Source: Haliotis rufescens (taxonomy: Eukaryota). Taken from it: 64,000 nucleotides of DNA. Position 1 is the stretch's first letter. Every line of letters starts with the position of its first letter. The notes beneath the pieces are model-generated. The model was not told the DNA's origin. It did not search any database and saw only the letters and a program-made list of their open reading frames with translations. Shown here piece by piece: positions 3,476-54,483 of the stretch. The position numbers and the translations under genes are program-made. The stretch covers positions 4,030,001 through 4,094,000 of the forward strand of contig NW_025963780.1 of assembly GCF_023055435.1 (NCBI RefSeq), written 5' to 3'.

Positions 3476-3738
3476 GTTTGTTTGTTGTTGAACGCCGCAC
3501 TCAGCAATTTTTCAGCTTTATGACGGCGGTCTGTAAATAATCGAGTCTGGACCAGACAATCCAGTGATTGACATCATGAGCATCGATCCACGCAATTGAG
3601 ATACGATGACATGGATCAACCAAGTCAGCTAGCCTGACCACCCGATCCCGTTAGTCGCCTCTTACGACAAGCAAAGTCGCCTTTTGCGGCAAGCATGGGT
3701 TGCTGAAGACCTCTTCTACCCAGGATCTTATCACGGGT
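3476..3738 (-). mobile_element. SINE-like family B with TSD
   Basis: Reverse copy flanked by the direct repeat caagcgccggt. Confidence 0.88.
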
Positions 3739-5098: not shown

Positions 5099-5362
5099 GA
5101 CCTGTGAAGATCTGGGGTAGAATAGGTCTTCAGCAACCCGTGCTTGCCATAAAAGGCGACTATGTTTCTCGTAAGAGGCGAAAAACGGGATCGGGTGGTC
5201 AGGCTCGCTGACTTGGTTGATCCATGTCATCGATCCCAATTTCGTGGATCGATACTCATGATGTCAATCACTGGCTTGTCTGGTCCAGACTCGATTATTT
5301 ACAGACCGCCGTCATATAGCTGGAATATTGCTGAGTGTGGCGTTAAACAACAAACAAACAAA
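5099..5362 (+). mobile_element. SINE-like family B
   Basis: Full-length copy with (CAAA)n tail. Confidence 0.85.
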
Positions 5363-5893
5363 TAATGAGGAAGGAAAGCCCAAAGAGATACAGATTGTAT
5401 GTTGTAGTCGTTTACCGCTTTGGTTAAACCCACGAACTTGGGAGTGGTGCGGACACTCTGTGATTGTTATCAAGGCAAATCTGACACATTCGAACACGTG
5501 CTAAGCACATAAATCTAAGCACATATAAGGGACGTAACTCTGGACGGCGATATTCGACGCCCCATACCACAACTCAACCTCTGCTCCAGTCATGACAACC
5601 TACACATTGTTCAATTCATTTTTTTGACAATCTTCCCAGATTTCAATAAAAGGAAATATTTCCTGAAATAAGAGGGTTATTTTCCGGTTGCGTCGTTTCC
5701 CTGATACGGTTTACACTTGCGTAGCTTTGATTTATTTATAGATTAGTTTTAGCAAAAACAGGCAATATCGTGTATCTATCAATCCAGTGATTGACATCAT
5801 GAGCATTGATCAACGCAGTTGGGATACGGTGACATGCATCAACCAAGTCAGCGAGCCTGACCACCCGATCCCTTAAGTCGCCTCTAACGACAA

Positions 5894-6056
5894 GGGGCGT
5901 TCGGGTAGCCTAGTGGTTAAAGCGTTCGCTCGTCACGCCGAAGACCCGGGTTCGATTCCCGACATGGGTAGAAAGTGTGAAGCTTTTTCTGGTGTCCCCC
6001 GCCGTGATATTGCTGGAATATTGCTAAAAGCGGCGTAAAACCATACTCACTCACTA
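5894..6056 (+). mobile_element. SINE family A inserted inside a family B element
   Basis: Flanked by the direct repeat taacgacaag; family B sequence continues on both sides (about 5781-6131, -). Confidence 0.88.
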
Positions 6057-6839
6057 TAACGACAAGCATAGTCGCCTTTTACAGCAAGCATGGTTTGCCG
6101 AAGAACAATTCTAACCCGGATCTTCACGGGTTGATGATGTAATGAGCAGAGTGAAGCGGGTATTGTCATGATCAGTTTGAGTTGGTTCACAGATACACAT
6201 TCAGCCTAGTTTTGATAACGTTTGTAGTTATTTGGTCAAATCCAATTTTCAAGTGTACACTTTCACATATGCCCTGCAGTTTACTTTAGCCTTGATTCCG
6301 ACACTCAAACGTCATCTCGAGTTTCAACAAAATCATGCCATATGGGACATTTGTCGTCAGTTTCCTAAATGCCAGGGTTGTAGTGTTTGTAAAGCACGCT
6401 GTGTGTAAATATACCGGACATCTCAACACACTATCACAGACCACGTCCGATAATTGGAGAAGTTGTGCCCGTGTTACAAGTCAACCGACATCACTTGAAA
6501 ACTGAAGGATGTGACAGTGACTGATCGGCACAACGCGTGGGGTTGTACATTTCATTACGTAACACACAGGTACGTGTATTTGCCTCCGTGACTTGTCTTC
6601 ACAAACCGGTGAAGTGGGTCCGTGTTTGCTTTTGTATTGTGTACTCTGATAACTAAGTAGAGCAATATAATCTGTAAGGTATTGCATGTGACCGTTGCCA
6701 GACATTACCTTTATAATAATTCCCAGTTCAATATGTAACGAATATGCCAAGTAACGTGAATGGGTCGTTTTCGACGCAGAAAAAGTCCATCTATGTCACA
6801 GTGGCCTGTAAATAACCGAGTCTCAGCCAGACAAACCAG

Positions 6840-10631: not shown

Positions 10632-10892
10632 GACCCGTGAAGATCCGGGGTAGAATAGGTCTTCAGCAACCCATGCTTGCTGTAACAGGCGAATATACTT
10701 GTCATAAGAGGCGACCAACGGGATCGGGTGGTGAGGCTCGCTGATTTGGTTGATGCATGTCATCGATCCCAATTGAGTGGATTGATGGTCATGTTGTCAA
10801 TCACTGGGTTGTCTTGTCCAGACTCGATTATTTACAAACCTGCATATAGCTGGAATATTGATGAGTGCGGCGTTAAACAACAAACAAACAAA
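10632..10892 (+). mobile_element. SINE-like family B
   Basis: Full-length copy starting gacccgtgaagatccggggtag. Confidence 0.85.
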
Positions 10893-11372
10893 CGTAACTT
10901 GGGTGTAATGTGCGAACCTCTTTTTCCAAATTTTGGATGACTTAGATCAAATGAAAGTCAAATAGGTTTGCGAAATGCTATCATGCTTGTTTTAGCAGAT
11001 ACGTATAAGGAAACATTCATTCGGGTTCATCATAAGGTCATACTTCACATTTATAATCAGTTGGTCCCATGTCCAGATATCCTGTTTCGTAATAGGGTGA
11101 ACACGATTTCTTCAAATGTCTCGTGTTCCATAACAGAGTGGGCAACAGCACGATATCTGGAGAAACAGGATGAAGCGCGTGCTGTTGTAGTGAGATATCA
11201 AGAATTCAAAAACATCCATAGCGCAACAGCGCTGGTCGTATATGTCCATCCATAGAGTCGTACATATATTTATATATTTTTTTTACAATTGTAGTTTATA
11301 ATTTTATTTTCAAATACAGACATTGAATAGCAGGAGTATTACTAAATAACACATATGAAACATGGAGAATGT

Positions 11373-16200: not shown

Positions 16201-16351
16201 AACCAAGTCACCGAACTTTATCCAAGCCCCATGAATACTTGAATTTGAAGTAGAAGTACAGTAGATATTGCAGTAGATGTTACAGTAGATGATGTTGTAG
16301 ATGCAGTAGGTGTTATTGTAGATATAGAAGTACGCTATCGTTTGTGTGTCG

Positions 16352-16605
16352 GTTTGTTGTTTAACGCCACACTCAGCAATATTCCAGCTATATGACGGCG
16401 GTCTGTAAATAATCGAGTCTGGACCAGACAATCCAGTGACATCATGAGCATCGATCCACGAAATTGGGATACGTTGACATGCATCAACCAAGTCAGCGAG
16501 CCCGACCACCAGATCACGTTAGTCGCCCCTTACGACAAGCATAGTCGCCTTTTACGACAAGCATTGGTTGTTGAACACCTATTTTACCCCAGATCTTCAC
16601 GGGTC
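16352..16605 (-). mobile_element. SINE-like family B
   Basis: Full-length reverse copy. Confidence 0.85.
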
Positions 16606-23542: not shown

Positions 23543-23606
23543 CTTAAAATGAGATAATTGCATAAAAGTCAGTAATATAAGCATACCAAGTTTCATAAGT
23601 TTAAAC

Positions 23607-23840
23607 ACCCGTGAAGATCCGGGGTAGAATAGGTCTTCAGCAACCCATGCTTGTCGTAAGAGGCGACTAACGGGATCGGGTGGTCAGGCTCGCTGACTTG
23701 GTTGATGCATGTCATTGATCCCAAGTGCGTGGATCGATGCTCATGATATTAATCACTGGATTGTCTTGTCCAGACTCGATAATTTACAGACCGCCGTCAA
23801 ATAGCTGGAATATTGCTGAGTGCGGCTTTAAACAACAAAT
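23607..23840 (+). mobile_element. SINE-like family B (single-hairpin variant) in the last intron of the dermatopontin-like gene
   Basis: TSD ataagtttaaac; starts acccgtgaagatcc. Confidence 0.88.
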
Positions 23841-24514
23841 AAGTTTAAACTGCCCATTTGAGAAATATACACGTTACGGAATAAAAGAACAGCAACCTGT
23901 AAATCCATGTATACTAAAAGAATAAAACGCAATGTATTCCAGCTTGATAACGGTTGTCGACCTGTGATGATCTGGGTTAGAATAGGTCTTCAGCAACCCA
24001 TGCTAATGTAAAAGGCGACAATATGCTTGTGTGCGAAGCGACTAACGGGATCAGGTGCTCTGGCTCGCTGACATGCAAGTCATCGTATCCCAATTGCGTT
24101 GATCGATGCTCATGTTGTCAATCACTGGATTTCTTGTCCAAAATCGATTATTTACAGACCGCCGTCATATAGCTGTAATATTGCTGAGTGCAGTGTTAAA
24201 CAACAAACAAACAAACACATATACAAACAAACAAACATGATAACGGTGTCAGAATCTCCATCGAAATGTCGCTATATGCAATAAACCAGAAGTTGTTATC
24301 CATAAGGTTGTACGGAACCTCTTTTTAAAGAAAGTATTGTAGCAAAACAGATAAAAATACACGTGTTTAGCATTAAATATCCATATTGCGTTAAAGTGAC
24401 ATACGCGACCGACATGGATATCTTCCAACAAACAATACGTATATGATTACATGTGATGTGTGTTTATGCGCGTACAGACATTTTAAACTGAAATATATAT
24501 CGAAGACAACTCAC

Positions 24515-27581: not shown

Positions 27582-27851
27582 ACCCATGAAGATTCCGGGG
27601 TAGCCGAATAGGTCTTCAGCAACCCAAACTTGCCGTAAAAGGCGACTATGTTTGTCGTAAAAGGCGACTAACGGGATCGGGTGGTCAGGCTCGCTGACGT
27701 GGTTGATACATGTCATCGATCCTAATTGCGTGGATCGATGCTCATGGTGTCAATCACTGGATTGTCTGGTCCAGACTCGATTATTTACAGACCGCCGTCA
27801 TATAGCTAGAATATTGCTGAGTGCGGCGTTAAACAACAAACCAACCAACCA
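27582..27851 (+). mobile_element. SINE-like family B with TSD
   Basis: Flanked by the direct repeat acattgcaataaa. Confidence 0.88.
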
Positions 27852-30994: not shown

Positions 30995-32194
30995 CTTAAA
31001 AAAACAAAAAACATTTTAAAAATATTTTCATCATATTACAATACGATTCTGGTTTTATCATATAATAGGTAGGTTTCTCGGCATGATAAATCCAACGGGT
31101 AAAAACGATATCCGTTGGGGTCATATGCGGATAGAGATGCAAATATCAAAGGTCAAGTGGGGACAACTTTCAGTGTTTACAAACAAACATGGCGTCGCCC
31201 TTGTTATTCGGCGATAGAGTCAGCATTAATTGGGCCGAAATATGTTACTTTGTTTCGTTTTGTCGCTGTGTGTACATCTGACTGCACTTCTTAACGTTAT
31301 GACAGGACAGGCCGACAGTCAACAACGTCTGAACATGACTGTCACTCATTTTAGACTTTGTCTCTGGGTAACGAGTTAGTGAGTGAATGTTATTTTACTC
31401 TGCAATATTCCAGCTATACCACGACGGCCTGTAGACGAGTTGCACCAAGCATGCCAGTGTTGACAGCAGGAAGAGTGATACATGCCTTTGAGTTTCGATG
31501 AGGTTGATATCGTGATATGTGTCGCGAGATATATGGCTTTATCATATACTAGTAATGGGAATGTTTCTCGACAGGGAAAAGCCAAAGGATAAAATGGTAT
31601 TCGTTGGGGTCATATATATTAAAGATGCAAATATGAAAGGTCGGGTAGGTACTACTTTCAGTGTTTACAAACAAACATGGCGTCGCCCTTGTCAATCGGC
31701 GATCGAAGCAGATTTCACCATCGGGAATCTAGAGAAACTAGTGGGATAATTGTTATTATCATCAAAACAATTGTCAAACATAGTGAAATCAGTGTCTAAC
31801 CGGGACGTAGCTGAGGCATGCTACAAATTGGGCAAATTTGGAGATATAAATTGAGAAATAATTTAGCGAGGACATAGGCCTATACCGGGCTCAGTTTCCA
31901 TATCCGTGCGTGTGGACCTGTGTGGCCTGTGGCAATTTCCCCAGTTTAAAAAGTTGGATTTGGCCTAAATATGGCCGAATTGATATACCTTCTTAAATTT
32001 TGTCTATGTGTGTCCATCTGACGGCACCTCGTAACGTTATGACAGGAGAAGCAGACGTCTCTCAGACTAGTGTTAGAGTAGAGTAGCCCCCCTTAGATAA
32101 AGGGCAGTTACTCTAGCGGGCGGACCGACGGATAGCCGCGAAAGCAAGTTTGTCTAGGTAATTTTTAGTTATGTAGTTACGGCACTGTCTGAGG

Positions 32195-32362
32195 GAGTGA
32201 GTGAGTGAGTATAGTTTTACGCCGCTTTTAGCAATATTCCAGCAATATCACGGCGGGGGACACCAGAAATGGGCTTCACACAATGTACCCATGTCGGGAA
32301 TCGAACCCGGATCTTCGGCGTGACGAGCGAACGCTTTAACCACTAGGCTACCCGACCGCCCT
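32195..32362 (-). mobile_element. SINE family A, full length, with TSD
   Basis: Flanked by the direct repeat actgtctgag; inserted into an older element. Confidence 0.9.
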
Positions 32363-53264: not shown

Positions 53265-53535
53265 GGTTGGTTGGTTGGTTGGTTGTTTAACGCCGCACTC
53301 AGCAATAGTCCAGCTATATGACGGCGGTCTGTAAATAATCGAGTCTGGACCAGACAATCCAGTGATTAATTTCATGAGCATCGATCCACGCAATTGGGAT
53401 CGATGACATGCATCAACCAAGTCAGCGAGCCTGACCACCCGATCCCGTTAGTCGCCTTTTACGACAAGCATAGTCACCTTTTACGGCAAGCATGGGTTGC
53501 TGAAGACCTATTCTACCCCGGAATCTTCACGGGTC
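53265..53535 (-). mobile_element. SINE-like family B
   Basis: Young reverse copy with (GGTT)n tail, nearly identical to 54205-54483. Confidence 0.88.
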
Positions 53536-54204: not shown

Positions 54205-54483
54205 GACCCGTAAAGATTCCGGGGTAGAATAGGTCTTCAGCAACCCATGCTTGCCGTAAAAGGTGACTATGCTTGTCGTAAAAGGCGACCAACGGGATCG
54301 GGTGGTCAGGCTCGCTGACTTGGTTGATGCATGTCATCGATTCCAATTGCGTGGATCGATGCTCACGATATTAATCACTGGATTGTCTGGTCCAGACTCG
54401 ATTATTTACAGACCGCCGTCATATAGCTGGAATATTGCTGAGTGCGGCGTTAAACAACCAACCAACCAACCAACCAACCAACC
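54205..54483 (+). mobile_element. SINE-like family B (about 240-280 bp, no tRNA head, (CAAA/CCAA)n tail), intact representative
   Basis: Starts (g)acccgt.aagat.ccggggtagaataggtcttcagcaaccc and ends ...atatagctggaatattgctgagtgcggcgttaaacaaccaacc; TSD ccttaaaactt. About 20 copies in the window, e.g. 549-775(-), 1399-1657(+), 9613-9830(+), 23959-24237(+), 47025-47290(-), 54822-55052(-). Confidence 0.9.

Follow-up and report, generated by a model that had tools for sequence, protein, structure and literature searches.

What fixes the 5' end of a short repeat that is present in very many copies and has no tRNA-derived head? The window, that is, the whole stretch of 64,000 nt analysed, raised this question for Haliotis rufescens, as a ~255-bp repeat was present in it as 11 near-full-length copies and in several fragments. 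In a 664-kb sample, consisting of the window, its neighbours and 40 arbitrary stretches chosen irrespective of the repeat, 102 repeat 3' bodies were found and the head start was present upstream of 56; genome-wide scaling gave roughly 110,000 full-length copies (~10^5). The preliminary description had proposed that the head is strongly structured and a candidate for a ribozyme or an internal promoter. The copy at 23607 and the other copies considered in the window were as follows.

23595..23606, + strand: 5' target-site duplication (TSD), 12 bp, identical to the 12-mer at 23839-23850
23607..23838, + strand: LP-SINE copy, single-hairpin variant, 232 bp, TSD-bounded
23675..23792, + strand: middle body of this copy; no match in the two full-length LINEs compared
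23793..23837, + strand: LINE-derived 3' tail and start of (CAAA)n; 45-nt match of 87% identity with the 3' end of the LINE L513 (E 1e-7)
23839..23850, + strand: 3' TSD, the same 12-mer as at 23595-23606
3476..3738, - strand: family copy; a few extra bases separate the TSD from the head
5099..5362, + strand: family copy with TSD
10632..10893, + strand: family copy
16343..16605, - strand: family copy
23959..24216, + strand: older family copy, neighbour of the 23607 copy
27582..27849, + strand: family copy, 13-bp TSD, two hairpins
53270..53535, - strand: family copy, 97.7% identity to the 54205 copy
54205..54470, + strand: family copy, 11-bp TSD, first base G, two hairpins

The repeat and its partner LINE

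The copies named in the preliminary description (23607, 27582, 54205 and the reverse copy ending at about 3738) were all TSD-bounded and started within a few bases of one point, as it had stated. The start, given there as (A)CCCGT, was indeed near-fixed, but its usual form was GACCCG (G at -2 in 20/26 and A at -1 in 22/26), and the 27582 copy began with ACCCAT. A TSD survey covered 48 full-length copies, 42 from the 664-kb sample and 6 from other loci; a duplication was called in 18, no call was made in 18, and 12 were unanchorable. Among the 18 calls, 2 or 3 of which look spurious, exactly GA preceded CCCG in 9, while 5 left fewer bases, overlapping with the target, and 4 left 3-14. The hairpin in the head was single in the 23607 copy and doubled in most others, with the hairpin module tandemly duplicated within the head (e.g. 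window 54247-54290).

ARAGORN found no tRNA and Rfam found no family in the head, in agreement with the earlier claim that a tRNA head is lacking. As to the Pol III boxes, also said to be lacking, the B box was absent from both strands of 3 copies; a loose A-box pattern had 4-7 sense-strand matches per copy in the 3 copies tested and was hence uninformative. The possibility that the head is the internal part of a longer, tRNA-headed SINE was rejected, since the TSDs abut the head. A second SINE family, which is tRNA-headed, was present at window 5893-6056, 32189-32361, 2367-2543 and other positions; it had the same LINE-derived tail, the only common part, but ended in (ACTC)n, and one of its copies sat inside a copy of the present family (5780-6131). 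Two small-RNA libraries, from which 7 and 125 reads were obtained, showed no accumulation at the head. In one library, ~30-nt reads of piRNA-like size accumulated in both orientations at two sites of the SINE body.

Window 53332-53362, + strand: small-RNA pile-up in the SINE body
Window 54367-54396, + strand: small-RNA pile-up in the SINE body

The repeat fits the published mollusc LP-SINEs, so that the element class is already known (PMC4758252). Matetovici (2016) described Hdi_LP, Hmi_LP, Lsa_2 and Sgl_LP in Haliotis and other molluscs, with a ~70-bp 5' domain common to Nimb-17_LMi, I-3_DR and RTE-9_CPB; a promoter role was proposed for this head but not tested, the partner LINE was left unidentified, and the text consulted describes no RNA structure (PMC4758252). 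Like these elements, the present repeat was short, non-coding and TSD-flanked, had a tandem-repeat tail, and carried, in place of a tRNA head, a ~70-nt head homologous to a LINE 5' end. The published Haliotis consensus has 255 bp and the present repeat 251 bp to the start of the tail, a comparison of length only (PMC4758252). We infer family-level identity with the Haliotis LP-SINE, and likewise the abalone label. The scallop MESC heads in Fig. S2 of the same paper possess, as judged by eye, the same C-run, stem, AGAA linker and hairpin (PMC4758252).

The partner LINE was reached through a scaffold of the bacterial collection (L388), probably host-derived, in which the motif lay ~350 nt upstream of an ORF. 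With this ORF as query, many intact relatives were found in the repeat's own genome, and the motif was upstream in 15/15 loci. Two of them, L512 and L513, were TSD-bounded 5.7-kb LINEs encoding an ORF1 of 422 aa and an ORF2 of 1226 aa, the latter with AP endonuclease, RT and RNase H domains; the CCHC knuckle of L513 ORF1 scored 16.5 bits, below the Pfam cut-off of 20.8. The ORF1 knuckle, the ORF2 domains, the TSDs and the common 3' tail are features of I-group LINEs, and the Nimb-like label suggested here is based on the domain order and on PMC4758252. The head of the 23607 copy shared 80% identity over 64 nt with that of L513 (E 1e-10), and the tail matched as listed above, with the middle unmatched. 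The preliminary description had considered a bipartite non-autonomous LINE derivative and an autonomous LINE with the same ends, and both were borne out by L513, an intact two-ORF element in the repeat's own genome that matches head and tail. Judged by sequence, the repeat is a non-autonomous derivative of an I-group (Nimb-like) LINE with which it has the head motif and the 3' tail in common. Since the tail repeat of L513 is (ACTC)n versus (CAAA)n in the SINE, a sister family of L513 may be the direct partner.

A young (AAGT)n-tailed LINE obtained in an RNase H search (loci L359-L378; G000 C578, C579 and C2:11.42-11.46 Mb) was not the partner, as its 5' end was without the motif; its RNase H matches recurred every 6.4-6.8 kb on several contigs, which suggests head-to-tail arrays. 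A pattern search for heads outside the SINE led to SINE-like families of greater age and to a single decayed LINE 5' end. The motif-bearing LINEs L506, L509, L512, L517, L518, L520 and L522 were often nested or adjoining in a few regions, and this clustering suggests a target preference for their own kind.

Predicted fold of the head

Comparison of homologues supports a predicted fold in which an H-type pseudoknot is followed by a near-invariant hairpin. In the 23607 copy, its parts would be as follows.

23608-23611 with 23620-23623, + strand: predicted pseudoknot stem S1, the loop of which is the 5' strand of S2
23612-23619 with 23632-23639, + strand: predicted pseudoknot stem S2, 8 bp; 7/8 pairs changed on both sides (12 rows)
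23626..23631, + strand: AGAAUA linker, which would form loop 3 of the pseudoknot; no variation of AGAAT in alignments A1 and A4, partly by construction, as search patterns and locus selection required AGAAT
23644..23674, + strand: second module, made up of P3, an internal loop and P4
23644-23648 with 23670-23674, + strand: variable stem P3, one mismatch here, judged by eye
23653-23657 with 23663-23667, + strand: near-invariant hairpin P4, loop AAGAG

In 12 rows selected because they aligned well, whose anchors were picked by eye and which, like the larger set, are partly related, 96.6% of the cells were paired, 9/17 pairs were changed on both sides, and covariation was 0.627 versus 0.194 +/- 0.028, while slid registers paired 30-50%. 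A set of 20 rows, which includes 5 LINEs found without the hairpin pattern and two visibly misaligned rows, gave 86.1% pairing and a covariation of 0.371 versus 0.143. S1 was paired in 93.8% of the cells with 2/4 pairs changed on both sides (12 rows) and in 87.5% (20 rows). For S2, all 28 representatives in a fixed ungapped register had 170/224 cells paired versus 126 +/- 6 after shuffling, the maximum being 150 cells in 10,000 partner shuffles. Among the P4 pairs (20 rows), one was changed on both sides, one on one side, and 3 were invariant, an invariance partly built into the search patterns, which contained AGAAT and the hairpin; in the LINEs from the protein search, all five P4 pairs were kept and variation was found mainly in the loop and flanks. 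Families without the 5' half (~17 of ~120 metagenome loci, L383 and L386) were left out of the alignments. The AGAAUA linker may make minor-groove contacts.

The fold proposed in the preliminary description, which equals the ViennaRNA minimum free energy fold of the 23607 copy, was retained in part. The hairpin and the UGAAGAUC/GGUCUUCA stem stood, the latter being strongly supported by covariation, yet as one stem of another pseudoknot. The CCCGU/ACGGG closure and the GGGU/ACCC pseudoknot did not, since 50.0% of these cells were paired across the homologues versus 49.1% after shuffling, and 210/500 shuffles were as high. Nor was the head strongly structured in terms of energy (23607 copy, ViennaRNA z -0.65, with 51/200 shuffles as good). 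The inability to fit an HDV or hammerhead fold was reproduced, as the head had no Rfam match at E <= 10, including the models of hammerhead, twister, pistol, hatchet and other ribozymes. An HDV-like ribozyme was rejected for the SINE head: the nested double pseudoknot is absent, as are the L3/P1.1 pairing and a first-base preference, and the covariation is that of a simple H-type knot.

Distribution of the motif

The 5' ends of LINEs were one setting in which the motif was found; the others were the 3' UTR of a LINE inserted in rDNA, a DNA virus and RNA viruses. HDV-like ribozymes of R2, RTE and L1Tc/ingi define the precise 5' end of non-LTR elements, and the motif was likewise associated with a precise 5' end. 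In most LINE families of the repeat's own genome, a canonical-looking HDV-like ribozyme lay directly before it.

L513:8740-8797, - strand: compact candidate HDV-like ribozyme with a minimal P4; also in most of L473-L522

By eye, these 58 nt upstream of the motif showed canonical helices, an L3 CC with GG and the J4/2 cytosine; Rfam RF02682 scored 28.5 bits on the upstream segment (E 0.14), below the cut-off of 44. Ribozyme-bearing copies started at the first G of the ribozyme, straight after the TSD, and the compact candidate opened about 1000 I-group LINE copies in this genome. The last strand of the ribozyme was directly upstream in 1003/1070 exact motif matches in these families. Among the first 100 matches listed, there were 10 exceptions, all with a mutated or partly truncated ribozyme, and 0 copies starting at the motif. 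Where the ribozyme was lacking, the first base differed among families, being T in 23/23 copies of a LINE family, G in 20/26 copies of the present SINE, and A in 18/24 and G in 10/11 copies of metagenome families, yet all four families started 6 nt before S2.

A 19-letter head word matched 5 viral contigs and looser patterns added 2 real ones; apart from these, looser viral patterns gave chance matches only, the best new one (29.9 bits) lying inside a long coding frame. The 5 distinct RNA-virus contigs all carried the motif on the sense strand, located 6, 11, 24, 74 and 101 nt past the last long ORF, with 89-183 nt from the motif to the contig end; a stimulator of stop-codon readthrough was rejected on account of this short remainder. 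RdRp or capsid Pfam matches were obtained in 3/5 of these contigs, and the motif was found in 3' UTRs of tombus-like and toti-like viruses. One RNA-virus contig possessed a second, incomplete copy in tandem, and tandem copies of the whole motif were observed in L011 and L168. In a DNA-virus contig of 212,482 nt, a size reminiscent of an iridovirus, the motif was situated between two genes. S2 was paired in 51/56 cells of the 6 viral rows and the rDNA-inserted LINE. Rfam gave no match on the 6 viral loci, and the motif was not found in the phage collection.

Bacterial assemblies gave 8 matches, 1 of which looks like chance and 7 like host contamination. One of these assemblies contained an insect-type rDNA-inserted LINE (L382), in which the motif starts the 3' UTR, 12 nt past the stop of the RT ORF, and the 3' UTR of ~570 nt runs into 28S rDNA, as is the case in R1 elements. 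Trimmed 3'-UTR RNA of L382 could be a source of short copies. A short element at L387:1970-2230, which may derive from an RTE LINE, consisted of the motif, here with a longer S1, followed by a short body and an extended (GAA)n tail. A metagenome scan yielded at least 122 stretches with the motif, mostly repeat families, and Pfam had no match to five ORFs downstream of such motifs. By eye, ~17 of ~120 metagenome loci kept the linker and hairpin but missed S1 and the 5' strand of S2; L162, L177, L215, L228, L236 and similar loci kept the linker, the 3' strand of S2 and the hairpin. In two repeat families among these loci, another common sequence replaces the 5' half of the knot.

Neither Rfam 15 nor the literature searched contained the fold, its occurrence in viruses and 3' UTRs, the partner LINE or the ribozyme ahead of the motif, which agrees with the earlier suggestion of an undescribed RNA motif; Repbase, Dfam, subscription journals and the LP-SINE figures may hold part of it. 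The covarying pseudoknot, the partner LINE, the viral and 3'-UTR occurrences and the upstream HDV-like ribozyme go beyond the text consulted on LP-SINEs (PMC4758252).

Possible functions of the motif

With a probability of about 0.5, the head fold stops 5'-3' exoribonucleases and would thereby set the 5' end of the element. Repeat copies would be transcribed passively as part of host RNAs; once these are spliced, decapped or cleaved, Xrn1 or Xrn2 would trim the upstream RNA and halt at the base of S1, and the trimmed RNA would be copied by the LINE ORF2 protein from the common tail. Ribozyme cleavage leaves a 5'-OH, which is not attacked by Xrn enzymes. In the ribozyme-bearing LINEs, RNA with this end would escape trimming, so that new copies would keep the ribozyme and would have a second barrier in the knot; a passive block depending on a 5'-phosphate thus fits the families with and without the ribozyme. 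In the viruses, the same fold would give a subgenomic 3'-UTR RNA. The invariant hairpin would probably bind a conserved host factor or brace the knot. The exonuclease block is favoured by the sense-strand motif shortly past the last ORF in RNA viruses and in the rDNA-inserted LINE, by the fixed start with a free first base, by the covariation of S1 and S2, and by the retention of the HDV-like ribozyme upstream.

Known xrRNAs are among the closest systems, and the motif combines a pseudoknot in its fold with a 3'-UTR position on the viral sense strand (5/5). The coremin motif (xrRNA-C) is likewise small, sequence-conserved and mostly found in viral 3' UTRs (PMC10520033), and shares a 4-bp first hairpin, an A-rich spacer, a second hairpin and a suspected pseudoknot (PMC10520033; PMC10321173). 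It differs in that the present motif lacks the YGAD loop and has an 8-nt loop fully paired in the 8-bp S2, and in that the coremin hp2 is conserved in structure only, while the second hairpin here is the invariant part (PMC10520033). Flavivirus and tombus/luteovirus xrRNAs also depend on a pseudoknot, lie in viral 3' UTRs and may occur as two copies in one UTR, as in L011, but the present motif has no three-way junction and no Rfam match (PMC5760640; PMC8374639). Thus the flaviviral, LT and coremin classes gave no match (Rfam on the 6 viral loci; YGAD loop absent). xrRNAs form a 15-16-nt ring around the 5' end, and the present motif is defined as predicted pairing only.

Xrn1 halts one nt upstream of the coremin hp1 (PMC10520033), with which the overhang of 0-2 nt before S1 agrees, whereas mosquito-borne flavivirus xrRNAs halt it 5-6 nt before P1 (PMC5760640), a difference that weakens the exonuclease block. 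Known frameshift pseudoknots do not stall Xrn1, so that an H-type knot alone would be insufficient (PMC10321173). Also weakening are the lack of a trimmed-back copy among the first 100 HDV-family matches listed, the near-invariant hairpin, which resembles a binding or catalytic site more than a mechanical block, the metagenome loci (~17 of ~120) without S1 and the 5' strand of S2, and the 30/48 full-length copies without a TSD call. That the motif represents a new xrRNA class, a portable 70-nt module moved among RNA viruses, a DNA virus and several LINE clades, is a tentative proposal which we hold at somewhat less than an even chance.

3' CITEs lie just past stop codons. Given the motif in 3' UTRs of tombus-like and toti-like viruses, it may alternatively be a CITE-like element for cap-independent translation or ribosome docking, active from either UTR, which would bring a conserved host factor to LINE and viral RNAs that have no cap, and through which the SINE RNA could dock near ORF2 synthesis. 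The very high primary-sequence conservation of the hairpin and the position directly behind an HDV-like ribozyme that leaves uncapped RNA speak for this; however, the fixed S2 distance of the four HDV-less starts would remain unexplained. Rfam had no 3' CITE match on the 6 viral loci. We regard this reading as unlikely; instead of competing with the exonuclease block, such an activity could also be an additional function of the hairpin.

Both functions named in the preliminary description are disfavoured, as the upstream ribozyme is kept in 1003/1070 matches and RNA viruses carry the motif too. A new class of self-cleaving ribozyme, weak or conditional, cutting at the base of S1 and silenced beside the HDV-like ribozyme, would suit the conserved core, the few positions at which LINE hairpins differ from the SINE/virus form, and the start at the foot of a helix, which is precise to the nucleotide (23/23), as in HDV. 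Viral copies are compatible with catalysis, since ribozymes are known from UTRs of linear RNA viruses, toti- and tombus-like viruses among them, mostly at the 5' side and exceptionally at the 3' side (PMC13725137). However, efficient cleavage, or a transcription start, at the motif edge would be expected to shed the upstream ribozyme; a cut past the stop codon would remove the 3' UTR of a LINE mRNA or viral genome, the first base and closing pair are not conserved, and the Rfam ribozymes gave no match, so that we consider this reading quite improbable. Slightly less probable still is an internal promoter starting at the first base of the head, with another role for the RNA fold. It was proposed for LP-SINEs in a paper that also cites L1Tc Pr77 as both promoter and ribozyme (PMC4758252), and would account for the 5'-end position and the precise start, but the stem letters vary freely while pairing is kept, unlike in a DNA site, one family has T as its first base, the motif is also present in a 3' UTR and in RNA viruses, which would have no use for a DNA promoter, and the expected HDV-less daughters numbered 0/100 among the first matches listed. 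A binding site for the ORF1/ORF2 proteins (RNP assembly or 5' junction), with viral copies as captured relics, has very little probability: it would suit the motif at 15/15 LINE 5' ends from the ORF1 search and the copy between DNA-virus genes, but the viral copies retain compensatory pairing (51/56 S2 cells, the rDNA-inserted LINE included) at a consistent position and the motif-bearing LINEs span different clades.

Independent of function, the partner LINE missing from the 2016 paper and an HDV-like ribozyme on I-group LINEs of this genome are presented here, and the putative label of LINE promoter is replaced by a defined, predicted RNA structure (PMC4758252). If the motif acts in cleavage or translation instead of in the exonuclease block, it would still connect viruses with mobile DNA as an RNA motif that Rfam lacks. 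A recent review treats cellular xrRNAs as not yet found (PMC8374639), and an Xrn1 block, if true, would answer this open question with an xrRNA in about 10^5 copies of one animal genome. Host nucleases would then trim host transcripts back to the knot, which would be a third way, beside promoters and ribozymes, for promoter-less elements to obtain a defined 5' end; retrotransposon 5' ends, and likewise SINEs that lack a Pol III head, could thus arise by a new route.
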